From contig OZ253445.1 of the NCBI GenBank assembly GCA_965261165.1, positions 1,369,082-1,433,081 on the forward strand: 64,000 bases of DNA. Direction: 5' to 3'. The DNA is from Gammaproteobacteria bacterium (GTDB lineage: Bacteria; Pseudomonadota; Gammaproteobacteria; Eutrophobiales; Eutrophobiaceae). Shown here in pieces: positions 6,552 to 37,276 of the stretch; the stretch's first letter is position 1; each line of letters begins with the position of its first letter. The position numbers and the translations under genes are program-made. Below the pieces are notes generated by a model. That model did not search any database and was not told the DNA's origin. It worked only from the letters and a program-made list of their open reading frames with translations.

Positions 6552-7816
6552 GGACTTGTCGGTTAATAGCCCGAAAGCATGAGATAATAGCCGAAATTCA
6601 AAACGGGTCTTATTGATGCGCAAACGCCAACAAAACACGCTGTTTATAGCACTAGACTGTCTGGTGGTAGCAAACCATCCCTAGCCTAAGCTTGAGGCCT
6701 TATTGTCATTCGATGAGCTGGCCAAACCTTAGGTTAAGCTCTATTCGGTTAAAGGTCATAAAGAAAAGGGGTTGCCTTTGGCTTACGCGCCCTGGTGTTA
6801 CAATTCATGGAAGATAGTAGTGATCGTGAAATGGAACGTTTTTTGCGAATGGATTTTTTTGCAAGAGAACACTTCTGGAACATGCTGTTACCCATTGGGC
6901 TTAGGAGAGAAGACCCCAGATCACAGTAATCTTGGTGATTGTCGAAAACGTGATGATCTTCGAGAACGCTTGGACACAGAAAACTGAATGACGGTTCTTA
7001 ACCGTGTTGGTGAAGAACTGAAGTCTATGGGTTTAATGCGCCAAGTGTTGACCTTTGTTGCTGCCAGTCACTTAGGTGAGTCAGCTAAGCACTTGGGACG
7101 ATAGAGATCGTGCCATTCAGGCCGGTTTAGAGAAGTTTAATCATAAGACCGCTGAAACAATAACGGTTGCTCAGCAGGCACGCTTTGGTGGTAAGGGCGG
7201 TAACAAGTTTTGCTAGGGCGATAAAGAACACATATTGATTGCTAGGCGAAGTGGTTTAATCAATAAGATTGCGGCTACATCGGCGGAAGTTACCGATGCT
7301 GAAGGGCTTGCCCACGTTGCCCCACAGGAGGTGCTTTTTTTGGTGATAAGGGTACTGTGTGAACCTGGGCAAAACCACACTCAAGCGCCAAGGCTGTCAT
7401 GATGCAACGATCAAGCCAGCCAATATGCAAGGCAAAGAGACTAAATAAAGAGCGTTGGCTTGCAGCCATGCGTTCACCTTATGAACGTGTCTTTGCTCAC
7501 CGTAACCGGCGGGTTGGTTATCGTGGTTTGCAGAAGGTGCAATCTCAGGTAGGCATGCGCACACTGACTTTCAACCGCAAAAGAGTGATGACACTGGGTT
7601 TGAAGACATAGATAGATTGGGTTTTGAAGACATCAATTCAATACCTGCCCAGGGTAAATACTAGGGTAAATCTGCCTTAAATTTGCCTAAAGGGCAGACC
7701 TAAGGCACTAATAGCCTAAAATAGCCCATTGGGACTTAAATAAAGCGGACTATTGTCGTTTATTTGAACCAATATTTGCATCTTGACATTGTTTTTCGAT
7801 TAACCGACAAGGCCTT
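6552..7816 (+). mobile_element. IS5-family-like insertion sequence relic (copy 1), about 1.27 kb, with imperfect terminal inverted repeats and a degraded transposase frame
   Basis: It is near-identical to 35990..37276. The ends are GGACTTGTCGGTTAAT on the left and ATTAACCGACAAGGCC on the right. Internal translated fragments resemble IS5-type DDE transposase pieces (DATIKPANMQGKE similar to DATIIEAPSSTKN; FGDKGH similar to ADxGY; RVFAHRNRRVGYRGLQK similar to the IS5 C-terminal motif). They are interrupted by multiple stops and frameshifts, and no ORF exceeds 77 aa. Confidence 0.6.
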
Positions 7817-7839
7817 AATTGTTACACGGAAAATTATTA

Positions 7840-9201
7840 ATGACGACAAAACGACAATCAATTCATGGTCAATGGTCTTCGCGCTGGGCGTTTATCCTGG
7901 CCGCGACGGGTTCTGCTGTCGGTTTAGGCAATATTTGGCGGTTTCCTTACATTACGGGTGAATATGGTGGTGGTGCATTTGTGTTGATGTATCTCGGCTG
8001 CGTTTTACTGGTGGGCATACCGATTATGATATCCGAGGTGTTGCTCGGTCGAAGAGGGCGTCAAAGCCCCATCAACACCATGGAGTCACTGGCCAAGGAA
8101 GAAGGCTTGAATCCGGCATGGCGTTATCTTGGTTGGATGGGTGTCGTTGCTGGTTTTCTCATTCTTTCTTTCTATAGTGTGGTTGCTGGGTGGACATTGG
8201 AATATATCTTTCAGTCGGGCTCAGGTAATTTTCTCACCGCGACTGATGACGAAATCGGTGAGATATTCGATAGCCTGCTAAGAGATCCCGGCCAACTATT
8301 GGCGATGCATACTTTATTTATGGCTCTGACGGTTGTAGTTGTTGCCATGGGCATTAAGAATGGCTTGGAACGTGCGGTTAAATTTCTAATGCCCGCACTT
8401 TTTATCTTGTTATTGATCATGGTGGGCTATGCTATGTCCACTGATGGTTTTCAGGAAGGTCTATATTATTTGTTTTATCCAGATTGGAGCAAGTTATCCG
8501 GCGAAGGCTTCTTGGTGGCATTGGGCCAGGCATTTTTTAGTCTGAGTCTGGGGATGGGTGCGATTATGGTTTATGGATCTTATCTGCCTGATGATGCTTC
8601 GATTGGACATACGTCGGTCAATATTGCTTTGGTCGATATGCTCGTAGCCATAATGTCTGGACTCGCTATATTTCCGCTGGTTTTTGCGTACGGTTTGGAT
8701 CTTAGCGAGGGTCCGGGCTTGATATTTGTGACGTTGCCGATTGCCTTTGGTCAAATGCCCTATGGGCAGATATTTGGCACGGGTTTCTTTATCTTGTTGA
8801 TGTTTGCCGGATGGACTTCATCAATTTCCTTGCTTGAACCTGCCGTCACCTGGTTAGTAGAAAATCGCGGTATTGCCAGAACCAAATCAGCAGCGATCAC
8901 GGGATTGATTGCATGGACTTTGGGTATCGGTTCTGCCCTATCCTTTAATCTTTGGCAAGACTACAAAATATTCGACAAAACCTATTTTCATATCATGGAC
9001 TATGTAACCTCGAATATATTGTTGCCTCTCGGAGGGTTACTCATCGCTGTCTTTGCCGCATGGTTAATGTCGAAAAAATCCCTAGCATCAGAACTTGGTT
9101 TGGGAGGAGGGTTTTTATTTCATGCCTGGTTATTTGTCCTTCGTTTTGTCACACCTATCGGTGTAGTTGCTATATTTCTACATGCGATTGGTATTATTTA
9201 A
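7840..9201 (+). CDS. sodium-dependent transporter, neurotransmitter:sodium symporter (NSS/SNF) family
   Basis: The product has the motif WSSRWAFILAATGSAVGLGNIWRFPY plus about 12 TM segments. The start was moved to the internal ATG at 7840 within the 7819 ORF. Confidence 0.85.
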   Translation: MTTKRQSIHGQWSSRWAFILAATGSAVGLGNIWRFPYITGEYGGGAFVLMYLGCVLLVGIPIMISEVLLGRRGRQSPINTMESLAKEEGLNPAWRYLGWMGVVAGFLILSFYSVVAGWTLEYIFQSGSGNFLTATDDEIGEIFDSLLRDPGQLLAMHTLFMALTVVVVAMGIKNGLERAVKFLMPALFILLLIMVGYAMSTDGFQEGLYYLFYPDWSKLSGEGFLVALGQAFFSLSLGMGAIMVYGSYLPDDASIGHTSVNIALVDMLVAIMSGLAIFPLVFAYGLDLSEGPGLIFVTLPIAFGQMPYGQIFGTGFFILLMFAGWTSSISLLEPAVTWLVENRGIARTKSAAITGLIAWTLGIGSALSFNLWQDYKIFDKTYFHIMDYVTSNILLPLGGLLIAVFAAWLMSKKSLASELGLGGGFLFHAWLFVLRFVTPIGVVAIFLHAIGII

Positions 9202-9203
9202 GT

Positions 9204-9641
9204 ATGACTGAAATAAGTAAAACAACTATTGTGCCTTATACCTCGGAAGAGATGTATGTGCTGGTGAATGATATCGAATCATATCCAATCTTTTTGCCCT
9301 GGTGTACTGCTGCGAAGATAACCTCTCAAGAAGAGGAAAGATTGACGGCATCACTTTCGCTGGCATTAGGAAAGATTAAACAATCATTCACGACAGAAAA
9401 TACCATGCATAATAGTTCTCGAATTGATATGCAGTTAATCGAAGGACCATTCAAACACCTGACTGGTTATTGGCGATTTATTCAGGAAGGCGATCGATCC
9501 TGCCATATTCATTTACATATGCATTTTGAATTCAAAAATAAAATCATCAAACATATTTTAGGCAAGGTATTTTATAAGGTGATGGATACACTGATTGATT
9601 CCTTTGCGCAAAGAGCACAACATATCTATGGCAGTAGGTAG
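9204..9641 (+). CDS. ratA: SRPBCC-family protein RatA (YfjG/Coq10-like ubiquinone-binding / ribosome association toxin)
   Basis: The ATG at 9204 lies in frame within the longer 8952 ORF. The product begins MTEISKTTIVPYTSEEMYVLVNDIESYPIFLPWC and is about 145 aa, typical of RatA. It has conserved ratA-ratB-bamE neighbourhood. Confidence 0.7.
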   Translation: MTEISKTTIVPYTSEEMYVLVNDIESYPIFLPWCTAAKITSQEEERLTASLSLALGKIKQSFTTENTMHNSSRIDMQLIEGPFKHLTGYWRFIQEGDRSCHIHLHMHFEFKNKIIKHILGKVFYKVMDTLIDSFAQRAQHIYGSR

Positions 9642-9945
9642 TGAACCATCGAACCTTATATCCATTGAGGTTGCTTACGCCTCAGTTGATCAAGGTTGGT
9701 TGATTTCATTCGAAGTCGAAGAAGGTACTACAGTTCAACAGGCCATCGTAAATTCTGGGATACTGGATCAATGTTCTGATATTGATCTGCAAATAAATAA
9801 AGTTGGACTCTTCAGTCGCATTGTTGGTCTCGATGTTCTGATCAGGGCAGGTGACCGTATTGAAATATATCGACCTCTGATCTTTGATCCAAAAAAAGCC
9901 AGACGCCTGCGTGCAGAAAAAGAAAAACAGAAAAATAAGGGATAG
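9628..9945 (+). CDS. ratB: RnfH family protein (RatB/YfjF, UPF0125)
   Basis: The product begins ...ISIEVAYASVDQGWLISFEVEEGTTVQQAI and ends in a Lys/Arg-rich tail. It overlaps the ratA end as in other gammaproteobacteria. Confidence 0.65.
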   Translation: MAVGSEPSNLISIEVAYASVDQGWLISFEVEEGTTVQQAIVNSGILDQCSDIDLQINKVGLFSRIVGLDVLIRAGDRIEIYRPLIFDPKKARRLRAEKEKQKNKG

Positions 9946-10203
9946 TATTTTTTTCAATATCCGGATGATTGGCATCACCAATGCGTGTGATTGATTTTAC
10001 TGCTGCTGGATAATTACCGTATTCGTCAACGCTGACTATTTTTTCAGCACCCCGCCGAATATATTAATTCGGTAATATAATGATCTGAAAAGATTTTTAA
10101 AAATTGGATAATGCTTAAAATTCTTCTTCTATTTATTCGAGGACTTCAAAATCGCGTTTGACTTTGTCCGCATCCCATTCATTGACTTCTTCTGCCAAGG
10201 CTT

Positions 10204-10740
10204 CTAATTCTTTCTGAGTTTCTTCATCTCTGGTTTCGTCGGCTTTTTTTTGAGTTCTTCATCACTGCCGAACCAATCATCAAAGAAGCCACTGAAGAAA
10301 CCTTCTTTTTTTCTTGTATCTGTAATGAGAATATTTAAAGACTCGTTAGCATCTTCTTCGGAATGTTTAGAACCATGTGTAATGTCACCTTCAAGATGCG
10401 TTAGTTTATCGTTTTTAAAAAATAAAGCGACGTGACGTTGAGCACGCTCACCATCACCTGGCTCGTTACTGTAGATATAATCCCAACGATTACTATGAAA
10501 AGAATCAGCCAGTAATGGTGTGCCCATAATAAATTTAACTTTTGCTCTGGTCATTCCAGGTTCGAGTTTATTTATCATCGACTGTTCAATGACATTGCCC
10601 TGCTGGACATCAATACGGTAAACAAATGGTATTTTGAGACTGCCGTCAGGGCGCCGATCACAACCAGTAATATGACTGGAAATAAAGACAAAAAGAACAA
10701 TAAGTAATATGATTTTATTCAACAAAAATTCCTGATTCAA
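10204..10740 (-). CDS. bamE: outer membrane protein assembly factor BamE (SmpA/OmlA) with an acidic C-terminal extension
   Basis: It has a signal peptide plus lipobox (LIVLFVFISSHITGC). It contains IDVQQGNVIEQSMINKLEPGMTRAKVKFIMGTP and HSNRWDYIY, the BamE core. It sits opposite ratAB and next to fur as in Pseudomonas (omlA-fur). Confidence 0.8.
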   Translation of the reverse strand: MNQEFLLNKIILLIVLFVFISSHITGCDRRPDGSLKIPFVYRIDVQQGNVIEQSMINKLEPGMTRAKVKFIMGTPLLADSFHSNRWDYIYSNEPGDGERAQRHVALFFKNDKLTHLEGDITHGSKHSEEDANESLNILITDTRKKEGFFSGFFDDWFGSDEELKKKPTKPEMKKLRKN

Positions 10741-10863
10741 AAACCTGTGATGTCTAAAGCGGGTAGATTGTATCGTAATGTAAAGGACACGTCATACCCC
10801 AAAACTACTCTTTCAAGTTAGCAACACACAAACTGTCCAGTTTTCATAGTATCCCGAGGAGGG

Positions 10864-11943
10864 GTGCTTATGAGACGGACAGAATGGTTACAGGAGACTC
10901 GATTGATGAGATTCGAGGAAGCTTATAGAGGCTGGACGGAGAGCCATCTAACCCAAGAGGCGGCGGCGTTATTGCTGGGTGTTTGTGCCCGGACATTTCG
11001 TCGCTACATAGATCAATATAAAGACGAGGCCTGGAGAGGGTCTCATCGACAAACGCTTATCGCAGGTAACGCCCTGGTCGACGAGGTCATGCGCATGGTG
11101 GACTGCTATCGCAGCCGACACGAGGGCTGGAATGTAAAGCACCACTACCACGCTTGGTACAAACGAGACGGCAGTCAGCACAGCTACTCGTGGGTAAAAC
11201 AGTCACTGCAAGCGGCTGGTGCCGTAAACAGCGTGATCGGTCACCCTGGTGATCGGTCACCCTGGCCGGGATGATGTTGCATCAGGACGGCAGTCAAGCA
11301 TTTATGGGTACCGGACAGTACTGGGATCTGATTGTCACTATGGATGATGCACCAATGAACCCTGCTCAATGTTCTTCTGCGATGAGGTAAGGAACGCAGA
11401 GCAGTTTTCAGGGTGTTGGTGACGTCATCGAAGGTCAGGGGGGCTGTTTTGCTCTTTGTAGACAGACCGAGGCAGCCATTACTGGACTACGGGAGGCGGA
11501 TGGGAAAGCAGACTAGGCGAACCTGACCCAGTTTGGGCGGGCTATGGGCCAATTAGGCATTGAGATGATCCTGGTCTATTCGCCAGAGGCTAGAGGCGGT
11601 TCCGAGCGTGTATTCAGCACGCACTAGGATCGCCTGGGCAAAGAATTGGCTCTGGGAATTGGCTCTGGTGGGCATCACGGATATAGAAGAAGCCAATACC
11701 CATCTGGCAGAGACCTACCTACCAGCTTACAACGTGGAGTTTACACAGCCGCCGCCAGAAGATGGCTCAGCCTTTGTGGCGTGCCGGGATTTATCGGTGC
11801 TGGATGACATCCTGGGCGAGCGTTTCGAGCGGACGGTGAGAAAGGACAACTATGTGCACTTTGAAGGACGGGTATTGCAGATCCCAGCAGATCGTCACCG
11901 CTGCCATTATGTGAAGGCGAAGATCCGGGTTCTGCGTTTATAG
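10864..11943 (+). pseudogene. ISNCY-family (IS1202/ISPlu15-like) transposase pseudogene, broken into at least 3 frames
   Basis: The N-terminal frame 10864..11274 begins MRRTEWLQETRLMRFEEAY...TFRRYIDQY (HTH). The middle carries HQDGS..WDLIVTMDDA in another frame. The C-terminal frame 11608..11943 reads NYVHFEGRVLQIPADRHRCHYVKAKIRVL. All are typical of ISNCY transposases. A 17-bp tandem duplication (GTGATCGGTCACCCTG x2) lies at about 11237..11270. Confidence 0.6.
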
Positions 11944-12110
11944 CGATGGTAGCTTATCCATTCACCACAGCCCCGGGAGCTGGCAAGGTATGACGCCCTA
12001 AGGTCATGAGCTCTCAGATAAACTACTGGTTGCAGTATTAATGTCTGCGGCTCAGCCGGTAGTTGCGAGGCACCTCTGGGAGCCTTCTAGCAATCAAACC
12101 AAAAGCGGAC

Positions 12111-12144
12111 AATCGTGGATAATCCCAATCGTGGATAATCTATG
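12111..12144 (+). promoter_or_regulatory. candidate Fur box (autoregulation) upstream of fur
   Basis: A direct repeat AATCGTGGATAATC x2 contains GATAAT hexamers of the Fur-box consensus (GATAATGATAATCATTATC). It is about 120-150 bp upstream of the fur start. Confidence 0.4.
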
Positions 12145-12261
12145 TGTTACAGAACTGGATATTTCTATTTGTTGCTAACACGTAGGCGCATAGATCATGA
12201 CATCGGCATGTGATTTCAGTATAATTGGCCGACGATTTTGCTCATCCTAAGGAGCCATTAA

Positions 12262-12672
12262 TTGGAAACACAAGATTTAAAAGATGCCGGACTCAAGGCA
12301 ACCCTGCCAAGATTACGCATTCTTCAGATCATGGAAGAATCCTATCAAAAACATCTAAGTGCGGAAGACGTTTACAAGGCCTTGCTGGAACTCCATGAAG
12401 ATGTGGGGCTGGCTACTGTTTATCGTGTATTGACCCAGTTTGAAGCGGCAGGGCTGGTGATTCGTCATCATTTTGATTCCGGTCATTCAGTATTTGAAAT
12501 TAATAGTGGTGGGCATCATGATCATATGATCTGCCTGAAAACAGGCAAAGTGATTGAATTCAAGAATGATGAAATTGAACGGATACAAAAAGAAATTGCT
12601 GAACAGCATGGATATAAGCTGGAAGAGCATAGCCTAGTGTTGTATGTGACACCGAAGGATGAGGATAGCTAA
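12262..12672 (+). CDS. fur: ferric uptake regulator Fur
   Basis: The 136-aa product contains LKATLPRLRILQIMEE, HLSAEDVYKAL, ATVYRVLTQFEAAGLV and HHDHMICLKTG, canonical Fur. Confidence 0.9.
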   Translation: METQDLKDAGLKATLPRLRILQIMEESYQKHLSAEDVYKALLELHEDVGLATVYRVLTQFEAAGLVIRHHFDSGHSVFEINSGGHHDHMICLKTGKVIEFKNDEIERIQKEIAEQHGYKLEEHSLVLYVTPKDEDS

Positions 12673-12679
12673 GGAATTT

Positions 12680-14356
12680 TTAGTTCTTTAACATTTCTTT
12701 TGCGTGAGCTAAAGTTTGTTCTGTGATTTTTACGCCGCCTAGCATACGGGCGATTTCATCGATTCGTTCTTCATCGTTTAATTCACCGACACGAGTCAAT
12801 GTTGTCCCTGCATGCGTGGCCTTGGAAACTTGCAGATGGTAATCTCCCCGAGTGGCAACCTGTGCTAGGTGTGTGACACAAAAGACTTGTCGCTTGTCAG
12901 ACAGACTATGTAAAAGTTTGCCGACAATTTCAGCAACGCCACCACCAATACCGCTGTCTACTTCGTCAAATATTAATGTTGGAATGCCTTTGTCCTTACT
13001 CCCCGTAACCTGTATTGCTAGACTAATACGAGACAACTCGCCACCAGAGGCAACTTTATTCAAAGGCTGTAAAGGCTGACCGGGGTTTAAAGATACCAGA
13101 TACTCAATTTTATCCATGCCATTTTGTAGCAATATGTCTTTTTCAATTTCGTTTACTTCAATAGCAAATTGCCCGCCAAGCATTCCCAACTCGTTTAATT
13201 TTTCAGTAATATCTTCACTGAGTTTTTTGGCTGCTCGTCGACGACACATACTTAATCTATTGGCTGCCCTGCGATAGTTTTTAGTTGAGGACTTTTGTAG
13301 CGCGATTAATTTTTCAAAACGAGCTTCACTGTTTTCGAGAGAGTGTAATTCATCTTTTAGTGTTTCGAGGTGATCAGTCAGTGCCTCCGGCTGAAGCTTA
13401 TGTTTGCGTGCCATGTCATGAAAAGCAGCAAGCAGATCTTCAACCATTTTCAATCGTTCAGGGTCCAGTTCAAGCCCGTCCAGATAATGACGCAATTCAT
13501 TGCTGGCTTCTTCAATTTGAATGCTTGCACCATTCAGTAATTCGATCACTGTTTCTAAAGAAGGATCAAATTTTTGCATGTCCTGAAGTTCGTTTAGATT
13601 GTGGCTAATCTGACTTTGAGTTGACCGTTCACCTTCAGAAAGTTGCTGAAGGTTTTGTTGACACGCTTCTATCAAACGATTGGCATTAGCTAATTTGCCA
13701 TATTCTTTTTCGATGTCACTGAATTTTGATCCACTCGGATTAAGTGCCTCTAATTCCTGAATCTGATATTGAATTAATGCAATCTGTGCGTCGTGGTCGC
13801 GCTTACCTCCGCTCAAGCTCTGTAGTTCAATTTTGGCTGCATTCCAGATTTTCCAGGCATCTTTCACTTCACTTAATTCCTGCGGATGGTTGCCAAATTC
13901 ATCGATAATATTTCTTTGCACATCAGCTTTTAGTAAAGATTGATGCGCATGCTGGCCGTGAATATCCACCATACATTCACCCAGCGAGCGTAACAATTGT
14001 GCTGGTACAGAACTACCATTGACATAAGCACGGGAGCGGCCATCTTTATTAATTACGCGACGTAGGATCAATTCATCTTCGCAGTCGAGCTCCTGTTCTG
14101 CCAACACAGACTGGATATCGTTCTCATTTTCGATATCAAAGATCGCGGTTATTTCAGTTCGTTCACAGCCAGCACGGACAATGCCACTATCCGAGCGATC
14201 ACCTAATACCAAGCCAAGTGCGCCAACCATAATCGATTTACCAGCGCCCGTTTCACCAGTAAAAATGGTCATGCCTGCATTAAACTGAATATCCAGTTCT
14301 TCAATTACGGCGAAATTTCTGATGTGCAGGTGTTTCAACAAACTTCGGTGCCCCAC
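12680..14356 (-). CDS. recN: DNA repair protein RecN
   Basis: The 558-aa product has a Walker A motif (FTGETGAGKSIMVGALGLVLG) and the SMC-like signature LSGGE. It uses a GTG start at 14356 and is convergent with fur. Confidence 0.85.
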   Translation of the reverse strand: MGHRSLLKHLHIRNFAVIEELDIQFNAGMTIFTGETGAGKSIMVGALGLVLGDRSDSGIVRAGCERTEITAIFDIENENDIQSVLAEQELDCEDELILRRVINKDGRSRAYVNGSSVPAQLLRSLGECMVDIHGQHAHQSLLKADVQRNIIDEFGNHPQELSEVKDAWKIWNAAKIELQSLSGGKRDHDAQIALIQYQIQELEALNPSGSKFSDIEKEYGKLANANRLIEACQQNLQQLSEGERSTQSQISHNLNELQDMQKFDPSLETVIELLNGASIQIEEASNELRHYLDGLELDPERLKMVEDLLAAFHDMARKHKLQPEALTDHLETLKDELHSLENSEARFEKLIALQKSSTKNYRRAANRLSMCRRRAAKKLSEDITEKLNELGMLGGQFAIEVNEIEKDILLQNGMDKIEYLVSLNPGQPLQPLNKVASGGELSRISLAIQVTGSKDKGIPTLIFDEVDSGIGGGVAEIVGKLLHSLSDKRQVFCVTHLAQVATRGDYHLQVSKATHAGTTLTRVGELNDEERIDEIARMLGGVKITEQTLAHAKEMLKN

Positions 14357-15207
14357 TGTAATTTTGCGCGGAGGGTGCTGAAATGGTCGTGATTTTCAGG
14401 GTGAATGAGGCGAATTTTCTTATCTTTTTTCTGGATACAAACGCGGTCTCTAGGGGCAAGTTCACGCTCAATATGGCCATCACAGGTTAAGCGCACATGA
14501 TCAACCTCACGTGTGCCGACAACAATTTCAATCAAGCTATTGCCAGCAATTACAATCGGTCTGTTAGTGAGTGTATGTGGACAAATAGGTACCAGCGCCA
14601 AGGCATCCAGTGAAGGATGTAAAATTGGTCCGCCACCAGATAGTGCATAGGCCGTTGAACCTGTAGGTGAAGATATAATAAGTCCATCTGAACGTTGTCG
14701 ATGAACGAAACTGTCATCCACGTAGGTTTCTAATTCAACCGGTCTGGCGACGTTCCATTTTTGCAAGATGACATCATTAAAGGCATTGCTCTCCATGAGC
14801 GACCTACCCCCTCTGAGTACCTCAACATGGAGCAGAAAGCGTTCGTCTTCGACGAAGGTCCCTGCAAAAATAGTATCAAGATATTCTTCGAAGGCATTTG
14901 CTGGGATATCAGCTAAAAAACCTAGGCGACCTCTGTTGATTCCGAGCAAAGGGATGTCACGTAGGCAAGCAAGGTGAGCGGCTTTCAGCATGGTGCCATC
15001 ACCGCCGATGGCAATGGCCAGGTCACAGTCCGCATCAAATTCATTTTCTTTCATGTTAGGCAAATCTGATTGTTTTGCCAGTACTGCACTATCGTTATCC
15101 AGAATAAAATCTATTTCATTGGATTGCAGATATATAATCAGGTTGTTGAGTGTTTCAGCAACTTTTTTGGTGTCGGAATTGCTTATTAAGGCGATACGTT
15201 TGAACAT
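14335..15207 (-). CDS. nadK: NAD(+) kinase
   Basis: The product contains the GGDGTML motif, NRGRLGFL and DGLIISSPTGSTAYALSGGGPI. The start was set at the internal Met (MFKRIALI) of the 14335..15246 ORF. The 3' end overlaps the recN start by about 20 nt. Confidence 0.8.
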   Translation of the reverse strand: MFKRIALISNSDTKKVAETLNNLIIYLQSNEIDFILDNDSAVLAKQSDLPNMKENEFDADCDLAIAIGGDGTMLKAAHLACLRDIPLLGINRGRLGFLADIPANAFEEYLDTIFAGTFVEDERFLLHVEVLRGGRSLMESNAFNDVILQKWNVARPVELETYVDDSFVHRQRSDGLIISSPTGSTAYALSGGGPILHPSLDALALVPICPHTLTNRPIVIAGNSLIEIVVGTREVDHVRLTCDGHIERELAPRDRVCIQKKDKKIRLIHPENHDHFSTLRAKLQWGTEVC

Positions 15208-15275
15208 GTGGCTACCATTGCTAAATAATATCCATAAACTTAGCATGATAGATAGTCGACCGCCAAATGATGATT

Positions 15276-15302
15276 TTGCACTCTTGACAATAGAGTGCTA
15301 AA
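15276..15302 (+). promoter_or_regulatory. CIRCE element (HrcA operator) upstream of hrcA
   Basis: TTGCACTC-ttgacaata-GAGTGCTAA matches the CIRCE consensus TTAGCACTC-N9-GAGTGCTAA in 17 of 18 positions. It lies about 50 bp upstream of the hrcA start. Confidence 0.8.
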
Positions 15303-15349
15303 TTTTGCAATAATACAAGGTATAACCATATGAGCAAGAAATAGTAGGC

Positions 15350-16402: not shown

Positions 16403-16510
16403 GTAGCCCCACCTAAGAAACAATGTAATATTTAGACGAATGATGTATTGGAGAATCCCGTATTTAGGGGTTTCTTGTTGTTTTTAATAGAGAAATACTT
16501 GAGGAAAGTC

Positions 16511-17137: not shown

Positions 17138-17151
17138 TTTTTTGTGCTGCC

Positions 17152-17180: not shown

Positions 17181-17248
17181 CGAAACAATAGAAAGAATTA
17201 CAGATATTTAAAGTCTAATTAATTGATAGCAGTTTTGGAGAATATCAG

Positions 17249-19270: not shown

Positions 19271-19310
19271 TAAAGTTAATGGAATTCAAGATTAAAATAT
19301 AAAGTAAATC

Positions 19311-26576: not shown

Positions 26577-26719
26577 TCTTTAAACAATCCAGATCCTATT
26601 CATGATTCTTATCATGATGGCGATTCTACCTTTTCGCGTCTTTAGCTTCACCCTTAACCTCAACAATGGTAACTTACCCCGCTATTTTTTATAAAGATTT
26701 ATCTCTAAACGGCCTATTT

Positions 26720-28753: not shown

Positions 28754-28784
28754 GAATAAAATAGAATCAGAGTAAAATGGACGA

Positions 28785-29354
28785 ATGGAAGAGATCTTTC
28801 TTGTTCTGATTAGTTCTGCTCTGATTAACAACATCGTTGTTGGCCATGTCATCGGCGCTGACCCTGCATTAGTATCAATTCAAAGATGTAATGTCACTCG
28901 CGGTATCTCAAGCATCATGCTCATCCTGTTACCAGTCACAACTGTCATTGCTTCTGCAATGACACGAGTCATACTAATTCCATTACAGCTAGAATATATG
29001 CAAACCTTAGCGTTTGTAATATTGATCATTATATTTGTTTCCGCTCTCAGGATGCAGTCTAAACCTTTAAGCAAATATGGTTCTGAAATTTTTCTACCAC
29101 TTGCCGGTATCAATGCAACTGTGCTTGGTACTCTGCTTCTGAATCAACAGCAAGATAACAATTTATTTTTCTCTTTCATTTTTGGTCTGGGTACGGCAAT
29201 TGGTTTCGCATTCATGCTTGCCTTGTTAAATGCGATTAATACACGGTTGGAAATGGCTGATGTCCCAACACCCTTCAGAGGACTTTCCATTACTCTGATT
29301 ACATTAGGTCTGATTTCGATGGCATTCCTTGGCTTTTTAGGACTTGTGAAATAG
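28785..29354 (+). CDS. rnfA: electron transport complex subunit RnfA/RsxA
   Basis: The 189-aa polytopic product contains ADVPTPFRGLSITLITLGLISMAF, typical of RnfA. Confidence 0.85.
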   Translation: MEEIFLVLISSALINNIVVGHVIGADPALVSIQRCNVTRGISSIMLILLPVTTVIASAMTRVILIPLQLEYMQTLAFVILIIIFVSALRMQSKPLSKYGSEIFLPLAGINATVLGTLLLNQQQDNNLFFSFIFGLGTAIGFAFMLALLNAINTRLEMADVPTPFRGLSITLITLGLISMAFLGFLGLVK

Positions 29355-29843
29355 ATGCTTGCCGTTTTCATCGTTTTTCTACTGGCTCTGATAAATGGCT
29401 TCCTTATTTCCATATCTCCCGAATCAACAGCGCAGAAAAACAAGATAGAAGAAATTCTTTCTGCCTTACCACAAACGCAATGTGGTCAATGTAATTACAT
29501 TGGTTGCCGACCCTACGCAGAGGCCATTATTCAAGGCAAGGCCGATATCAATCAGTGTCCGCCTGGTGGCGCTGCAACGATAAAAACATTAGCTAATTTA
29601 TTGGGTCGCCGGAGCAAACCGCTTAACCCTGAAAATGGTTTGGAAAAAGAAAAACATGTTGCCTTAGTTGATGAAGCACTCTGCATCGGTTGCGTAAAGT
29701 GCATTAAGGTCTGTCCCACGGATGCCATACTCGGTGCTGCCAAACAGATGCATTCTGTTCTTAGCAAAGAATGTACCGGATGTGAGCTTTGTATTGCTCC
29801 CTGCCCAATGGATTGTATCAGTATGCAAGTGGTTACAAGTTAA
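29355..29843 (+). CDS. rnfB: electron transport complex subunit RnfB
   Basis: The product has an N-terminal TM segment, a [12 protein letters not shown] cluster and two 4Fe-4S ferredoxin motifs ([24 protein letters not shown]). Confidence 0.85.
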
Positions 29844-29863
29844 GTGAATGAGTAAATAGCAAA

Positions 29864-31375
29864 ATGAACAGGGAAATAGAGAGGGAATTACATTCTTTTC
29901 CAGGCGGACTTGACCTTAGAACCTATAAAAAATTAGCCAATAATAAAGAATCATTAATCACACCGCTTCCAGATAAGATCATCCTGCCATTGCGACAACA
30001 TATCGGCAACCCTTCAGTACCATCACTTAAAATAGGAGATAAAGTTCTTAAAGGGCAAAAAATTGCGCAAGCTGATGGTTACGTCAGTGTCCCTGTACAT
30101 GCCAGTACCTCTGGAAAAATTATTGAAATCAGTACTTGCCCATCCGCACAAAATCAATCGATAAAAACACCCTGCATAATTATCGAGCCAGATGGCAACG
30201 ATACATGGTTTGATATCGAACCCGTTAAAGATTATCTATCAGTAGATCCAGAAAAACTACAGCACTTGATATGCGAAGCAGGCATGGTCGGTATGGGAGG
30301 CGCAGGCTTCCCAGCACATGTAAAACTAAATGAAGGCACCACCACAGAAGTGGATACATTAATCATCAACGGTGTTGAGTGCGAACCATATATCAGTTGT
30401 GACGATAGAATTATTCGAGAGAAAGCCAACTATATCGTTTCAGGAACACGCATGCTGCAACATGCGATTCAAGCAAAACATTGTGTGATTGCCGTTGAAG
30501 AAGATATGCCTGAGGCCTTTGATGCATTGGATGCCTTGGTTGACGACGATATAGAACTGGTAAAAGTCCCTACACGTTACCCTACGGGTGGAGAGAAGCA
30601 ACTCATTAAAGTTTTAACTGATAAAGAAGTCCCCAGTGGCGGTTTGCCGATCCATATTGGTGTAGTTATGCACAATGTAGGGACAGCCGCTTCTGCTTTT
30701 CGGGCTGTCACCCGTGGAGAACCTCTGCTTTCTCGTTACGTCACCGTGTCTGGAGATATTGATAATCCGCGTAATCTACAGGTCCTACTAGGAACGCCTG
30801 TCGAACATTGTCTCAAGCAAGTTGGTTACCAACAATCTGAAGATGGAATCGTGATCATGGGCGGCCCAATGATGGGTAAGCACGTCCATGATATTTCCAT
30901 GCCAGTAATTAAAACCACAAACAGTATTCTTGTTACTTCAGGTCCTATCCATAGCAAAGAGATGCCCTGTATAAATTGTGGACAATGTATTGATGTTTGT
31001 CCTGCAAAACTACTTCCCCAGGAATTATTCGCCTACGCTCGTATGGGAGATATTCAACAAACACAGGAACTACATTTATTTGATTGTATTGAATGTGGTT
31101 GTTGCGCCTATGTCTGCCCAAGTAATATTCCTTTGGTGCAATATTACAGACAGGCAAAAATTGACATTGCCATCCATGAAAAAAAACAGGTTGAATCCAA
31201 TTATGCTCGCTCTCGATTCGAAGCACGGAACAAACGACTGAACCGCGTGGATGATCGTTTTAATAAAAAGAAAACAAATTTTTCTAAGAAGGAGTCAGAT
31301 GGTCTCGCAGATAAGCAATCGTATATTCAGGCAGCTGTCGAACGTATGAAACAAAAACGTAATAAAGATAAGTAA
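29864..31375 (+). CDS. rnfC: electron transport complex subunit RnfC
   Basis: The 503-aa product contains GMVGMGGAGFPAHVKL (an NADH/FMN-binding-like motif) and two ferredoxin motifs (CINCGQCIDVCP, CIECGCCAYVCP). Confidence 0.85.
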   Translation: MNREIERELHSFPGGLDLRTYKKLANNKESLITPLPDKIILPLRQHIGNPSVPSLKIGDKVLKGQKIAQADGYVSVPVHASTSGKIIEISTCPSAQNQSIKTPCIIIEPDGNDTWFDIEPVKDYLSVDPEKLQHLICEAGMVGMGGAGFPAHVKLNEGTTTEVDTLIINGVECEPYISCDDRIIREKANYIVSGTRMLQHAIQAKHCVIAVEEDMPEAFDALDALVDDDIELVKVPTRYPTGGEKQLIKVLTDKEVPSGGLPIHIGVVMHNVGTAASAFRAVTRGEPLLSRYVTVSGDIDNPRNLQVLLGTPVEHCLKQVGYQQSEDGIVIMGGPMMGKHVHDISMPVIKTTNSILVTSGPIHSKEMPCINCGQCIDVCPAKLLPQELFAYARMGDIQQTQELHLFDCIECGCCAYVCPSNIPLVQYYRQAKIDIAIHEKKQVESNYARSRFEARNKRLNRVDDRFNKKKTNFSKKESDGLADKQSYIQAAVERMKQKRNKDK

Positions 31376-31384
31376 ATAAATATC

Positions 31385-32395
31385 ATGGACAAAATAACAT
31401 CACCTCATATTCATTCGCATGCATCAGTTAATGAAGTAATGTGTCAGGTGATATTTGCGCTTATTCCAGGAATTATCGTATCTATATGGTTCTTGGGATG
31501 GGGCATACTTATTCACGGCTTGCTTGCGGTTAGTTTTGCCTTAGCTTTCGAAGCTATTATGTTGATTCTCAGGAAACGTCCGCTTCATGACTTTATATAT
31601 GATGGCAGTGCTATCATTACCGGTTTGTTATTTTCCCTAACTATTACGCCCTTCGCACCCTGGTGGGTCACGTTATCCGGTATTTTTTTTGCTATTGTTA
31701 TTGCAAAACATCTCTATGGCGGGCTTGGCTACAATATTTTCAATCCAGCCATGACTGGCTACATCTTTGTACTGATTTGTTTTCCAGTCGAGTTAAATTA
31801 TTGGCCGTTAATAGATGGAGATAGCAGTTTCATTGATGGCCTGAAAATAATATTCGTCGGCTTGCCTCATGAAACCTTGGATAGTCTAAGTGGGGCAACT
31901 CCGCTAGCATTTACCAAATCTCAAATCAGTGATATGGCCATGCTTTCTGAATTCTCCAACGGCCCCATATTTGGTGTACTAGGAGGCAAAGATTGGGAAT
32001 GGATTGGTATTGCCTTTCTAGCAGGTGGCGTGTGGTTAATAATAAAGGGAATCATTAAATGGCAAATACCTCTGACCTTGATATTCGTTTTATTTGCACT
32101 GAGTTTAATTTTTCATGGCTATGACCCAGAAAGGTATACCTCATCAGCATTCAACCTGTTTACTGGAGGGACATTACTCGCCGCTTTTTTTATTGCAACA
32201 GATCCTGTCACCGCTTCAGCCACACCGCGTGGGAAAATTATCTACGCCATTGGTATCGGCCTATTAACCTATGTTATTAGAACATGGGGAGGCTACCCTG
32301 ATGGGATCGCTTTTGCCGTGCTAATCATGAATGCTGCAGTACCATTTATTGATAATGTTACACGACCCAATGTCTTTGGCAAAACTACATCATGA
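31385..32395 (+). CDS. rnfD: electron transport complex subunit RnfD
   Basis: The 336-aa membrane protein of the NqrB/RnfD family contains FNPAMTGYIFVLI and SGATPL. Confidence 0.85.
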   Translation: MDKITSPHIHSHASVNEVMCQVIFALIPGIIVSIWFLGWGILIHGLLAVSFALAFEAIMLILRKRPLHDFIYDGSAIITGLLFSLTITPFAPWWVTLSGIFFAIVIAKHLYGGLGYNIFNPAMTGYIFVLICFPVELNYWPLIDGDSSFIDGLKIIFVGLPHETLDSLSGATPLAFTKSQISDMAMLSEFSNGPIFGVLGGKDWEWIGIAFLAGGVWLIIKGIIKWQIPLTLIFVLFALSLIFHGYDPERYTSSAFNLFTGGTLLAAFFIATDPVTASATPRGKIIYAIGIGLLTYVIRTWGGYPDGIAFAVLIMNAAVPFIDNVTRPNVFGKTTS

Positions 32396-32997
32396 ATATT
32401 TCAACTAAAGAAATAATCCTTTTTAGTATTATCGCAGCTCTATGTGCAATTTTTTTATTGTTTAGCCATGAGCTGACCAAGGAACGTATTTCTGAAAATA
32501 TAAAAATGCAAAGGTTGCAGGTAATTACTGCAGTCATGACAGATGATTTTGATAATGATATTTACCACGATGTGAAACTTATTGATTATACGGATGATTC
32601 TGGAAACAAATTAACAACCAACGCCTACAGAGCACGAAAATCTGACAACTCTGTCGGTGTAGTCTTTATGCCCATCCTTGCCACAGGTTATAACGGTTCA
32701 ATTCAGTTATCGATTGGTATTCTTGAGAATGGTTCTATATTTGGCGTTCAAGTATTGTCACATCATGAAACAGAAGGTCTTGGTAGCAATATTCATCAGG
32801 ACGAGACGGACTGGTTGAGTAATTTTGCACAGCAGTCTTTCGATATCACTACAATGGGACAATGGACTGTCAAAGATAAATCTGGCAAATTTGATCAGCT
32901 GAGTGGCGCAACAATTACCTCTTGTGGTGTTATCAACGCTGTTAAAAATAGTCTAAAACTGTACATGACCAATCAGGACACCTTGTTTCTAGATTAA
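32392..32997 (+). CDS. rnfG: electron transport complex subunit RnfG
   Basis: The product has an N-terminal TM segment and an FMN-binding domain signature (SGATITSCGVINAV). It overlaps the rnfD stop. Confidence 0.8.
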   Translation: MNISTKEIILFSIIAALCAIFLLFSHELTKERISENIKMQRLQVITAVMTDDFDNDIYHDVKLIDYTDDSGNKLTTNAYRARKSDNSVGVVFMPILATGYNGSIQLSIGILENGSIFGVQVLSHHETEGLGSNIHQDETDWLSNFAQQSFDITTMGQWTVKDKSGKFDQLSGATITSCGVINAVKNSLKLYMTNQDTLFLD

Positions 32998-33237
32998 GGT
33001 TTTTCAGACAATTTATTGAGATATGGAAATAAATACTTGAGGGTAAAGATTATGACGCTAACCGAAGACCTACCTGATTCACCGAAGAAGATGTTGTACA
33101 TCAACGTAAGCTTGCAAAGACAACTCTTGCATTTATCTTTGCAGTCAATGATCTGCCATGTAAAAATTTAAGACAAAACTATCAGACAGAACGATTCTCG
33201 TTTCTGGTATTTAAAACGCCCGTAGACTCTGAATGAT

Positions 33238-34362
33238 ATGTCATTAGCTATATCAGAACTTGTTGCACAAGCTAGCTCAGGTGACCTTGATACTCAGCTC
33301 CAGCTTGCAGAATTATATGAGAGCGGGTTTGGTATGCCTGTTGATTTTGCTCAGGCTACCTATTGGTATCGCAAAGCTGCGAAGGCAGGATCGGCAAAGG
33401 CACAGAATCAATTAGGATTGTTCTTTATCAATGGCAAAGGCGTAGTACAAGACAATGCAAAAGCATTTCTTTGGTTCTCTTTATCGGCAAATCAAGATTA
33501 TGATAGTGCCCAGGCAAACCTAGCTTGGTGCTATCAATGTGGCATTGGCGCGGAGAAAGACTATGTAAAAGCCTTTAAATGGTATTTAAAAGCTGCAAAT
33601 AATGGGCATGCTGGGGCCAGATATAATCTGGGATACATGCATGCACATGGTCATGGCACCGATAAAAATTATACAGACGCCTTTCGATGGTATGCCCGAG
33701 CCGCTAGACAAGGGCACGTAAAAGCACAACTGAATGCCGGGCTAATGTGCATGAACAGTCAAGGAACAGAACAAAATTATGAACAGGCATTCGAGTGGTA
33801 TCAAGATGCTGCTATGCATGGATATGATAAGGCTCAATATAATCTTGGACTTTTATACCATCACAGTCTTGGCGTTGAGCAGGATTATGCCAAGGCGGCG
33901 AAATGGTTTCAGAAGGCGGCTGAACAGAGCTACGCAAAGGCAAATTATCAACTGGGGAAAATCTATCTGGAAGGGCTTGGCTTTCCTTCAGATGATGTAA
34001 AGGCAGCCAAATTTTATCAACTAGCCGCTGATGCTGGTTATGCCAAGGCGCAGTACCGAATGGGGCGGCTTTACCAAAAGGGCTTGAGTGCAGATCAAGG
34101 CGAAAAGACTGCCTACAACTGGTTTAGAAAGTCAGCAAAGAAAGGATATTTAAAGGGTCAATATGCCACCTCAATACACCTAGCAAAAGGGCTTGGCGTT
34201 ACTAAAGATTATGTCAAGGCATATGCTTGGGCGCTACTCGCCAACGAATCAAAAAATCCTTATGCCAAAAAACTATTATCTAAAATTAGCGCAAAATTGA
34301 CTGAGTGCCAAATCATTGAGGCTAGGGCACTTGCGGGAAAATGGTATGATGAGCAAAGTTAA
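33238..34362 (+). CDS. Sel1-repeat (TPR-like) protein
   Basis: It has about 9 tandem Sel1 repeats (AxxWYRKAAxxGxAxAQxxLGxxY). Confidence 0.75.
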   Translation: MSLAISELVAQASSGDLDTQLQLAELYESGFGMPVDFAQATYWYRKAAKAGSAKAQNQLGLFFINGKGVVQDNAKAFLWFSLSANQDYDSAQANLAWCYQCGIGAEKDYVKAFKWYLKAANNGHAGARYNLGYMHAHGHGTDKNYTDAFRWYARAARQGHVKAQLNAGLMCMNSQGTEQNYEQAFEWYQDAAMHGYDKAQYNLGLLYHHSLGVEQDYAKAAKWFQKAAEQSYAKANYQLGKIYLEGLGFPSDDVKAAKFYQLAADAGYAKAQYRMGRLYQKGLSADQGEKTAYNWFRKSAKKGYLKGQYATSIHLAKGLGVTKDYVKAYAWALLANESKNPYAKKLLSKISAKLTECQIIEARALAGKWYDEQS

Positions 34363-34377
34363 CTAACTTTGAAATAG

Positions 34378-35808
34378 TCATAACACTGGAGAATTGATAG
34401 TCGGTGATACTTTATTTTTTCCCTCGCCATTTTCCCAATTATGCTGTTCATCAATTCTTTTAGTTTCAACATTTTTCCATTTCAGAATGTCATAATAGCG
34501 TCTAATATTTTCCACATAAGTCACAGGTTCGCCCCCTCTGGCATGGCCATGCTCAGTTTTCTGATGCCATTGCTCATCTGCTAACAAAGGTAATCTTTCT
34601 CTTACATCCGACCATTTATCAGGATCGTCGCCCTGAGATTGGGTTAATATTCTGGCATCTTCCAGATGCCCAAAACCTACATTGTAGGCAGCAAGAGCAA
34701 GCCATAGCCTATTCTCTCCCTGAACCCTTTCCGGTATTTTATTTATCATTTTAATCAGATAACGTGCACCCCCTAGAATGCTCTGTTCCGGATCGAGTCT
34801 GTTCTCAACACCCAATGATTTAGCTGTATCTGTTGTTAACATCATCAACCCTCGTACGCCTGTAGAAGATTTTGCTTCTGGATTCCAGTGGGATTCCTGA
34901 TAACTCATTGCTGCCAGGAGTAGCCAATCCAGTTCTGTTTCTCTGGCTGATTTTATAAATAGATTTCTGAATTTCGGCAGGTTGTTATGAATACTCTCTA
35001 TAAACACACGCGTATCAATATAATCAAAAGATTTTGCATGCCTGTAATAACGGTTGATTAATTTATCCAACGAACCATCATTATTAATGCGTTTGAAAAA
35101 ACTTTCAACCGCATTACCTAGTGAGCGATCATTATTTCGTCGATATACCCATGCGACAGGTAATTCCCCGGTGATATCGAAAGCAACCCTGACTTCAGGA
35201 AAGATATAACGATACATGGCTACCCAATTAGAATCCGCAATTGCAATTGGCGCATTTTCATCATTTACCATCTTGAGAATCTCTGTCATGCTCTTATTTT
35301 CAAGCACGCGCCAAGCAAGATCCGGATGATAAAAACTTATTTTTTTTAACAGTGTTTGATAAGACTCATCTTCACCAATAATGATCTCATCTTCTTTGAG
35401 GTATGCAATTGATCTTGGTTTTCTATTTTTCTGATGATAAATGAGCTGTCTCTTCGCCGTAATATAAGCTGGGGCATATTCAAGCGTATTGTTAGGGTAA
35501 TCAGATAAGGCTAATGCGGAAGAGCCTATATGGGCTTTATTATTATTGATCAGTGAAGACACATCATGCTTGTTTTCCGCAATAATTAAATTCAAATCGA
35601 GGTCCAGACTATCAGCAAACATGCTGGCCAATTCGTATTCAAGACCTTCGGCCTTACCATCTGAACCTTTATAGTAGGTTAGTGGACTTTCTACAGTGAC
35701 GAACCGTAACTCGCCAGACTCACGGATTTTTTCCAGTAGTGTCTTCTGATCACTACAAACCGAAAGCGCCAATACGCAGAAAATAAATAATAGAGACCTT
35801 TGCATCAT
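34378..35808 (-). CDS. mltF: membrane-bound lytic murein transglycosylase F
   Basis: The product has a signal peptide, a solute-binding-protein-like domain and an SLT domain (AAMSYQESHWNPEAKSSTGVRGLMMLT). Confidence 0.8.
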   Translation of the reverse strand: MMQRSLLFIFCVLALSVCSDQKTLLEKIRESGELRFVTVESPLTYYKGSDGKAEGLEYELASMFADSLDLDLNLIIAENKHDVSSLINNNKAHIGSSALALSDYPNNTLEYAPAYITAKRQLIYHQKNRKPRSIAYLKEDEIIIGEDESYQTLLKKISFYHPDLAWRVLENKSMTEILKMVNDENAPIAIADSNWVAMYRYIFPEVRVAFDITGELPVAWVYRRNNDRSLGNAVESFFKRINNDGSLDKLINRYYRHAKSFDYIDTRVFIESIHNNLPKFRNLFIKSARETELDWLLLAAMSYQESHWNPEAKSSTGVRGLMMLTTDTAKSLGVENRLDPEQSILGGARYLIKMINKIPERVQGENRLWLALAAYNVGFGHLEDARILTQSQGDDPDKWSDVRERLPLLADEQWHQKTEHGHARGGEPVTYVENIRRYYDILKWKNVETKRIDEQHNWENGEGKNKVSPTINSPVL

Positions 35809-35849
35809 TCAAAACCGCTGAATAAAGCGTACAAACAATATCATTATTT

Positions 35850-35987
35850 TTATAAAGTTTGTATGAAACAGTTTCATTTTGCGAGAATTCTCCTTTAATC
35901 GTCACAGCAATAGCATAAAACCCCTCAATGAGCGTGTTTTAGTTATTACTTATCCATTATCGAGCATTCAGACATAATACATCTACA
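35850..35987 (+). repeat. 150-bp repeat family R2 (forward copy), abutting the left end of IS relic copy 2
   Basis: It is near-identical to the reverse complement of 22290..22438. Confidence 0.8.
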
Positions 35988-35989
35988 AG

Positions 35990-37276
35990 GACTTATCGAT
36001 TAATAGCTCGAAACATGAGATGACCCGACATGCAAAACGGGTCTTATTGATGCGCAAACACCAACAAAATAGGTTGTTTATAACACTAGACGATCTTATA
36101 GCAGCAGAGCATCCCTAGCCTAAGCTTGAGGCCTTATTGTCATTCGATGAGCTGGCTAAACCTTAGGTTAAGCTCTATTCGGTTAAAGGTCATAAAGAAA
36201 AAGGGGTGGCCTTTGGCTTACGCGCCCTGGTGTTACAATTCATGGAAGATATGAGCGCTCGTGAAATGGAATGTTTTTTGCGAATGGATTTTTTTGCAAG
36301 AGAATGTTCTTTGCAAGAGAACATTTCTGGAACATGCTGTTACCCATTGGGCTTAGGAGAGAAGACCCCAGATCACAGTAATCTTGGTGATTGTCGAAAA
36401 CGTGATGATCTTCGAGAACGCTTGGACACAAAAAACTGAATGGCGATTCTTAACCGTGTTGGTGAAGAACTGAAGTCTATGGATTTAATGCGCCAAGTGT
36501 TGACCTTTGTTGCTGCCAGTCACTTAGGTGAGTCAGCTAAGCACTTGGGACGATAGAGATCGTGCCATTCAGGCCGGTTTAGAGAAGTTTAATCATAAGA
36601 CCGCTGAAACAATAACGGTTGCTCAGCAGGCACGCTTTGGTGGTAAGGGCGGTAACCAGTTTTGCTAGGGTGATAAAGAACACATATTGATTGCTAGGCG
36701 AAGTGGTTTAATCAATAAGATTGCGGCTACATCGGCGATAATAACCGATGCTGAAGGACTTGCTCACGTTTGCCCCACAGGAGGTGCTGTCTTTGGTGAT
36801 AAGGGGCACTGTGTGAACCTGGGCAAAACCACCATCAAGCGCAAGGGCTGTCATGATGCCACGATCAAGCCAGCCAATATGCAAGGCAAAGAGACTAAAT
36901 AAAGAGCGTTGGCTTGCAGCCATGCGTTCAGCCTATGAACGTGTCTTTGCTCACCGTAACCGGCGGGTTGGTTATCGTGGTTTGCAGAAGGTGCAATCTC
37001 AGTAGGCATCCGTGTACTGACTTTCAACCGCAAAAGAGTGATGACACTGGGTTTGAAGACATAGATAGATTGGGTTTTGAAGACATCAATTCAATACCTA
37101 CCCAAGGTAAATACCAAGGCAAATACTAGGGTAAATCCGCCTTCCATTTACCTAAAGGGCAGACCTAAGGCACTAATAGCCTAAAATAGCCCATTGGGCC
37201 TTAAATAAAGCGGACTTATTGTCGTTTATTTGAACAAATATTTGCATTTTGACATTGTTCTAGATTAACCGACAAG
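35990..37276 (+). mobile_element. IS5-family-like insertion sequence relic (copy 2), about 1.29 kb
   Basis: It is colinear and near-identical with 6552..7816, including the same frame disruptions. Its ends are GGACTTATCGATTAAT and ATTAACCGACAAGGCC. A few small indels separate it from copy 1, for example a GAATGTTCTTTGCAAGA duplication. Confidence 0.6.

Follow-up and report, generated by a model that had tools for sequence, protein, structure and literature searches.

Composite transposons and rearrangements bounded by insertion sequences (IS) are textbook phenomena. In Tn9, Tn10, Tn5 and the IS1 composites of Escherichia coli, two IS copies flank a segment and a target duplication is found on the outside only. 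In IS-activated E. coli, chromosomal segments of 5-370 kb have been directly observed to move by composite transposition, and in mutation-accumulation lines of this species 25 of 40 duplications (median size 40 kb) were IS1-bounded composite transpositions (PMC12065110). IS copies lacking duplications of their own are also described exactly at synteny breakpoints, made by homologous recombination between copies, for example in Neisseria gonorrhoeae (PMC3454330). The locus analysed here lies in a 64,000-nucleotide stretch of a Gammaproteobacteria bacterium genome (assembly GCA_965261165.1, contig OZ253445.1; hereafter the window), in which two decayed IS copies bound a 28.2-kb block of core genes; it is an ordinary event of this type, unusually well documented.

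The locus shares with composite transposons the presence of the same IS on both sides of a segment, a putative duplication at the outer ends only and the absence of the whole unit from the corresponding site in relatives; as in N. gonorrhoeae, IS copies without their own duplications are located at the junctions. It differs from known composites in that the cargo is made of essential core genes rather than accessory ones, in that both arms are long dead and in that the original block would have been lost, giving a net translocation. The arms are moreover direct, whereas the quoted E. coli examples had inverted pairs (PMC12065110). From the comparisons described below, it is probable that the two copies are the arms of a single 30.7-kb IS–block–IS unit that has undergone a composite-transposon-like translocation.

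The IS pair, the enclosed block and the site that it occupies

Alignment and blastn within the window detected two colinear IS copies in direct orientation and no others. A first-pass annotation had placed them at 6552-7816 and 35990-37276; the duplicate is real but its ends were 1-3 nt off, and the coordinates 6552-7814 and 35989-37279 are used throughout. In what follows, L-numbers designate fetched loci or contigs of relatives and P-numbers designate proteins, P0001 being the intact reference transposase of the 326-aa type. The features on which the analysis is based are as follows.

5764..6483, + strand: nrdJb, left boundary gene of the insertion hotspot (homology to relatives ends at 6482-6487)
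6546..6551: outer direct repeat, left, ATGAGG (contains ATGAG or TGAGG)
6552..7814, + strand: IS copy 1, probable left arm of the unit, 1263 bp (alignment, blastn, colinear match to P0001)
6552..6567, + strand: left inverted repeat of copy 1, GGACTTGTCGGTTAAT
7799..7814, + strand: right inverted repeat of copy 1, ATTAACCGACAAGGCC (blastn)
7815..35988: core-gene block of 28.2 kb, translocated (NCBIfam/Pfam annotation; block of relatives beside smpB)
35989..37279, + strand: IS copy 2, probable right arm of the unit, 1291 bp (alignment, blastn)
35989..36004, + strand: left inverted repeat of copy 2, GGACTTATCGATTAAT, degenerate (alignment)
37264..37279, + strand: right inverted repeat of copy 2, ATTAACCGACAAGGCC, with no difference from copy 1 (blastn)
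37280..37285: outer direct repeat, right, ATGAGG
37374..37739, + strand: ORF121, a conserved small gene, right boundary of the insertion hotspot (homology to relatives 37358-37743)

A base-by-base alignment, with 65 mismatches over 1258 columns, gives 94.8% identity, and a further 10 indel events separate the copies; the earlier description of almost identical segments had overstated their likeness. Homology between them ends precisely at the tips of the 16-bp terminal inverted repeats. These repeats, already proposed in the first-pass annotation, were borne out by the alignment: in copy 1, GGACTTGTCGGTTAAT and the reverse-complemented ATTAACCGACAAGGCC agree at 15/16 positions, and in copy 2 the agreement falls to 13/16, two Gs of the copy 1 left repeat being changed to A in GGACTTATCGATTAAT; inverted repeats of the same type occur at the ends of all intact relatives. 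Divergence between the copies is uneven along the element, with segments at 16%, 4.3%, 1.8% and 5.4%, and includes a mismatch-free run of 173 nt (permutation P = 0.0035). This mosaic indicates at least one past exchange of sequence between the copies. Their last 200 nt, with ~6% divergence and 3 indels, are no better conserved than the element average.

The hexamer ATGAGG adjoins only the outer ends of the pair, to the left of copy 1 and to the right of copy 2. The chance of such a coincidence is ~3e-4, or ~1e-3 after allowing for four flank pairings. Neither copy has a target duplication of its own, in agreement with what had first been noted: the flanks of each match at only 2/6 and 1/6 positions, and the inner flanks, TTAAT and CTACA(A), mismatch their partners. 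If the G at 6551 is counted in copy 1, its tip reads GGGACTT…, which is the family tip GGGCTT with one inserted A, and giving this one terminal base to the element leaves a 5-bp repeat in register (ATGAG followed by GGGACTTGTCGGTTAAT, that is the family tip GGGCTTGTCGGTTAAT with the inserted A). The first-pass annotation had seen a shorter match, ATGAG, and had suggested that it may be chance. We instead read ATGAG(G) as the likely outer duplication of the whole 30.7-kb unit, because relatives have the outer flanks next to each other and because the clade to which the IS belongs makes 5-bp duplications (see below). An outer-only duplication around two direct copies, combined with contiguous outer flanks, is the mark that a unit inserted as a whole leaves.

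The contiguity of the outer flanks was found in seven contigs of relatives. Five of them (L107, L109, L118, L125 and L179) have the gene order arsM-folD-ctaA-nrdJa-nrdJb-cargo-ORF121, with a cargo of 0.65-1.7 kb, and two others (L106 and L111) likewise have nrdJb and ORF121 on either side of a variable cargo; since nrdJb and ORF121 are neighbours in all seven, the outer flanks of the IS pair are contiguous in these relatives. The relatives of ORF121, at 82-90%, are found on metagenome contigs; when the window is compared with these contigs, homology is lost at 6482-6487 and regained at 37358-37361. The nrdJb–ORF121 spacer is hypervariable across the seven contigs, its cargo corresponding to a RelE toxin with a helix-turn-helix protein, to a Schlafen/AlbA_2 protein, to a GST with a LysR regulator or to two unknown open reading frames (ORFs), and it is an integration hotspot in this lineage.

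The genes of the block have another location in relatives. These encode, or correspond to, an NSS transporter, ratA, rnfH, bamE, fur, recN, nadK, hrcA, grpE, dnaK, dnaJ, dapB, cysG, dcd, apbC, metG, rnfABCDGE, a Sel1-repeat protein and mltF. In L103, L104 and L105, whose NSS proteins are 89-90% identical to that of the window, the same series NSS…dnaK…mltF starts beside smpB, a gene that is absent from the window. The nucleotide homology of these relatives to the block begins at 7816, only 1-2 nt from the right tip of copy 1, and this start falls inside a TATAAT-like box that the relatives have upstream of NSS. Gene order in the relatives shows that the presence of the unit (6552-37279) in the nrdJb–ORF121 hotspot is a derived state, due to insertion, and that the block ancestrally stood beside smpB, the absence of the unit from its present site being established at the gene level.

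The decayed transposase and its intact relatives

Each copy contains the remains of a transposase gene, delimited by frameshift-aware protein-to-DNA alignment to P0001.

6616..7611, + strand: transposase pseudogene of copy 1 (also tblastn)
36050..37064, + strand: transposase pseudogene of copy 2

Residues 4-321 of P0001 map in order onto each copy through the frame changes; the fragments, which had been described as scrambled, are thus colinear with the reference and change only in frame. The LVLQFMED.S.REME motif region (DUF772) is kept in both copies. The longest stop-to-stop ORF in either copy is 77 aa and no intact frame was found, which, together with the match of the repaired protein to intact transposases, confirms the earlier view of a dead IS5-type DDE transposase relic.

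Lesions common to both copies consist of four stops, two frameshifts and an 18-nt in-frame insertion. The stops fall at P0001 residues 26, 42, 116 and 192 (6682, 6730, 6985 and 7214 in copy 1; 36116, 36164, 36437 and 36666 in copy 2) and the frameshifts, both +1, after residues 145 and 269 (7075 and 7446 in copy 1; 36527 and 36900 in copy 2). Private frameshifts number four in copy 1, namely three -1 frameshifts caused by 1-nt deletions at 6771, 7315 and 7347 and one at 6885, where 17 nt present in copy 2 are missing. Copy 2 has a single private frameshift (-1, a 1-nt deletion at 36996), along with a 17-nt tandem duplication near 36305 and a 12-nt repeat expansion. At the 143 family-invariant positions, which 97% or more of 110 intact relatives conserve, 28 residues are altered in both copies, 25 of them identically, with 3 further private changes in copy 1 and 7 in copy 2. 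The identical replacements include three invariant Asp-to-Ala changes, D141, D177 and D201 (P0001 numbering), of which D141A, in the FVDAS motif, would hit the presumed first catalytic aspartate. Asp-to-Ala changes (GAY to GCY) are unusually concentrated among these 25 replacements, at 7058-7063, at 36510-36515 and at two more sites in each copy.

Because most disabling lesions are common, as the first-pass annotation had recognised, most of the decay is older than the split of the copies or their last homogenisation, and both arms either descend from one dead template or were homogenised to it, gene conversion, which that annotation had not raised, being a partial alternative to descent. From one dead template it follows that any transposase acting afterwards must have been supplied in trans. 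The differences that separate the copies are distributed 18/9/19 by codon position (p = 0.14) with no third-position bias; this even spread fits neutral decay, and both arms have probably been decaying neutrally since their split or last homogenisation.

The frameshift-repaired protein matches intact transposases of 326-329 aa with up to 65% identity over 97% of the length, a value reached with P0001. Intact relatives are elements of 1176-1187 bp with a single 326-aa transposase (DUF772 + DDE_Tnp_1) and termini GGGCTTGTCGG(A/T)TAAT (L001, L086-L102, L186-L191). Three of these transposases (P0001, P0106 and P0090) pass the cut-off of PF01609 (DDE_Tnp_1) with 40-42 bits against 23, and the relatives pass that of PF05598 (DUF772) with 54-64 bits against 23.1; the repaired protein of the window reaches 17.9 bits with PF01609, below 23 as expected of a pseudogene. 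With NF033581 (IS5_4) the intact relatives give a full-length match of 115-127 bits, under the 140 cut-off, and the repaired protein 41.9 bits. With NF033551 (IS1182) the relatives score 139-164 bits, under 270, and match only model positions ~2-150 of 488, their N-terminal 145 residues giving E = 1e-40 to 1e-48 with this model. The intact relatives reach no curated NCBIfam transposase cut-off; in the JGI annotation they are named "IS5 family transposase".

The target duplication is of 5 bp in 7/7 reliable insertions of intact relatives. Six of these, from one long-read assembly (L186-L191), are flanked by perfect 5-bp duplications (AACAT, ATCAA, TCATT, ATTTT, ATATT and TATTG), which settle the length. 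The seventh (L001, AAGGT) interrupts an IS256-type gene whose frame is restored by excising the element and 5 bp, that is 1181 bp, a test that is compatible with a 3-, 5- or 6-bp duplication. Short metagenome contigs for P0012 and P0086 were left out of the counts: they are chimeric across IS copies and unusable because a given left flank is joined to more than one right flank.

These sequence comparisons place the relics, as decayed members, in an outlying clade of IS5/IS1182 type whose target duplication is 5 bp long. They resemble the IS5 family in having a single ORF, a length of ~1.2 kb, DUF772 ahead of DDE_Tnp_1 and short inverted repeats starting with GG, and the IS903 tip, GGCTTTGTTGAATAAATC, resembles GGCCTTGTCGGTTAATC of the relics. 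The subgroups of this family (IS5, IS903, IS427, IS1031, ISL2 and ISH1) are known to make duplications of 2-4, 8 or 9 bp, lengths that differ from the 5 bp of the present clade. Tabulated duplications are of 2 bp for the IS427 group, 9 bp for the IS903 group and 4 bp for an IS1182 element (PMC3281130). Likeness to IS1182 concerns only the N-terminal third of the model, and the relatives encode 326 aa in elements of 1.18 kb, as compared to ~1.65 kb for the listed IS1182 element (PMC3281130). The element is related to, and works like, the IS5 family, but its duplication length and curated scores fall outside those of the named subgroups and models, and its clade may be an unnamed IS5/IS1182-type subgroup with a 326-aa transposase, a 5-bp duplication and termini GGGCTTGTCGGWTAAT.

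The clade of the intact relatives is common in marine metagenomes (TARA and others). A scan of viral contigs with P0001 found nothing, and tblastn against plasmids returned only two records, distant or partial. A 22-mer specific to the dead lineage, spanning the common D-to-A change and frameshift, had 0 matches in 185,579 species-representative genomes. The relics recall miniature inverted-repeat transposable elements and other defective IS in having no working transposase, terminal repeats that are kept and lesions common to the copies. They differ from the former in being full length (1263 and 1291 bp, instead of less than ~600 bp), in occurring as two copies in the window and in having no per-copy duplication.

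Routes to the present structure

In the series of events that we propose, IS copies would have landed on either side of the block, one of them 25 nt upstream of the NSS start, within the TATAAT-like box. Acting through its outer ends, the IS–block–IS unit would then have entered the hotspot as a composite transposon and produced the 5-bp duplication, after which the block would have disappeared from its original site. Both arms, once dead, would have decayed neutrally, and their centre would hold a tract left by a past conversion-like exchange. Composite transposition through the outer ends followed by loss of the original block has, in our estimate, about an even chance of being the actual route. 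A broader proposition, namely that a pair, whether it was already dead and relied on a transposase in trans or was still alive and underwent homogenisation afterwards, moved ~28 kb of essential core genes as a composite and that its IS clade is possibly an undescribed subgroup, is put at somewhat less than even. When two copies simply recombine, the result is an inversion or a deletion in which the duplications have been swapped, unlike the unit found here; an outer-only duplication in direct orientation needs either composite transposition or the insertion of an IS-bearing circle.

Several observations weigh against a composite translocation of the unit. The empty site was not recovered at the nucleotide level, the reconstructed site scoring within the shuffled range against the spacers of relatives. 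The direct repeat is of 6 nt as opposed to the 5 bp of the clade and needs either a base from the element or a 1-in-4 coincidence. No intact transposase that could have served as a source was found in the window or in 2.27 Mb of fetched loci of relatives. The evidence from relatives for the ancestral site covers the smpB side of the block. Given the mosaic divergence, the common lesions could stem partly from gene conversion and not from descent. Finally, composite transposition and recombination of a circle into a resident IS lead to an identical final structure.

The latter route, which we hold to be unlikely, starts from a block flanked by two further direct IS copies beside smpB: a looped-out circle made of the block and one IS would have recombined into an IS already resident in the spacer and flanked by its own ATGAG duplication. 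It explains the outer-only duplication and the bare inner junctions as well as composite transposition does, needs no transposase when both arms are already dead, and is favoured by the mosaic divergence in that the copies do recombine. However, it requires at least three direct copies of one dead lineage, with no third copy present in the window, and the re-integration of a non-replicating circle carrying the essential genes dnaK and metG. Two separate insertions of a dead element mobilised in trans, as put forward in the first-pass annotation, would also be consistent with homology stopping at the inverted-repeat tips and with lesions common to both copies, provided that their duplications have eroded, that ATGAGG is coincidental and that the synteny differences are unrelated. 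Yet at ~5% divergence most of such duplications should survive and not even a degraded one is seen at either copy, the outer match has the low chance given above, and both copies lie at synteny junctions whose outer flanks are contiguous in the seven contigs. Independent insertion thus appears very improbable, and the copies are better read as the arms of one block. Segmental duplication, the other origin first considered, is excluded since homology ends at the inverted-repeat tips; a duplicated intergenic stretch with no mobile-element origin is next to inconceivable in view of the full-length colinear similarity to intact transposases and of termini that are the inverted repeats typical of the family.

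Two further alternatives concern the state of the elements rather than the route. Common lesions might have arisen by gene conversion, the elements being alive at insertion and during movement of the unit, after which one would have decayed and then overwritten the other. The 1.8% divergence of the centre against 4-16% elsewhere, the 173-nt mismatch-free run and the direct orientation of copies 29 kb apart all point in that direction, and trans mobilisation of a dead element would no longer be needed. The common stops at residues 26 and 42 and the frameshift at 269 are, however, located in the 4.3% and 5.4% segments and not in the 1.8% centre, and conversion would have to be near full-length, the 25 identical replacements spanning the whole ORF; we retain this possibility tentatively, on the doubtful side. 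The second alternative, that the relics are kept as domesticated promoters or 5' leaders for NSS and ORF121, is improbable. As stated in the first-pass annotation, both copies lie upstream of a + strand gene, although the spacers of 24 and 98 nt given there proved to be 25 nt (copy 1 to the NSS ATG at 7840) and 94 nt (copy 2 to the ORF121 ATG at 37374). NSS has lost its native upstream region except for these 25 nt, its TATAAT-like box being split by copy 1, and must hence be transcribed from within or through copy 1; no + strand terminator was found between nrdJb and NSS. A TTGACA hexamer does occur in each right end, at 7783-7788 and 37249-37254 and not at about 7787 and 37247, and had been proposed to supply an outward -35 element. 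This proposal found no support: no acceptable -10 hexamer is present 16-18 nt downstream, the tip is too far, at 25-26 nt, for a -10 in the flank, a consensus promoter scan detected no + strand promoter in either right end or in all of copy 1, and the last 200 nt are not conserved above average.

Surrounding junctions, other repeats and implications

Other differences in gene content and order were noted around the unit. Upstream of smpB, L103-L105 have differing integrase-bearing islands with restriction-modification and transposase genes; these occupy the usual tmRNA-associated island site, which is the ancestral left neighbour of the block. A third synteny junction, without IS, is located at 37743-37752, where the homology of ORF121 relatives ends (37743) and that of yaaA relatives starts (37752). 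The relatives do not carry ORF121 and yaaA within 10 kb of one another, and their DNA downstream of ORF121 did not overlap with DNA upstream of yaaA; in one relative of 2.31 Mb, NSS and yaaA are 570 kb apart. A scan of species-representative genomes with NrdJa detected only relatives at 70-78%, with no conserved neighbours beyond nrdJb. Between rnfH and bamE, a 130-nt remnant (9949-10078) is found where relatives keep fecCD–ABC–periplasmic-binding-protein genes, and ~6 kb (8 genes) of the relatives are missing at 39940-40560, between a GGDEF gene and hemE. Both losses fit the smaller genome, 2.13 Mb as compared to 2.31-2.41 Mb.

The window also contains intergenic repeats of other types. One of 195 nt occurs as an inverted pair (22290-22483 and 35793-35987) that is 93% identical, with 139 nt at 99%, so that its copies are far more alike than the two IS copies. 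The copy at 35793-35987 extends right up to the left tip of IS copy 2 and the one at 22290-22483 continues into a CTACAG…CTGTAG hairpin. The latter was considered as an empty site for copy 2 and rejected, its continuation mismatching the right flank of copy 2. Rfam gave no match for this repeat, and none of the fetched loci contains it. A second family, with 80-97% identity, is found at 21994-22144 (dapB-cysG), 57034-57315 (hemA-phoU_div) and 60041-60340 (coq7-deaD), the last two being inverted around a 2.7-kb phoU_div–PHO4–coq7 segment. Rfam detected no known RNA family in the IS element or in the intergenic repeats.

The known mechanism of composite transposition is left unchanged by these data, whose value resides in unusually clear fossil evidence and in a cargo of core genes. 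The locus offers a clean natural case of IS reshuffling the core genome and not just accessory genes, a block with essential chaperone, tRNA-synthetase and respiratory genes having been relocated with evidence that outlasted ~5% sequence decay. For annotation, an IS pair whose individual copies have no flanking duplication may still have transposed, which makes it advisable to inspect the outer flanks of such pairs. The relics further point to a common marine IS clade that is unnamed by current curated models. If the proposed reading is true, essential core genes would have entered a hotspot whose occupants in relatives are variable accessory genes, toxin-antitoxin genes among them, and an intact 5-bp duplication would survive as the fossil of the move of a core block by an IS pair, whether dead or alive at the time.

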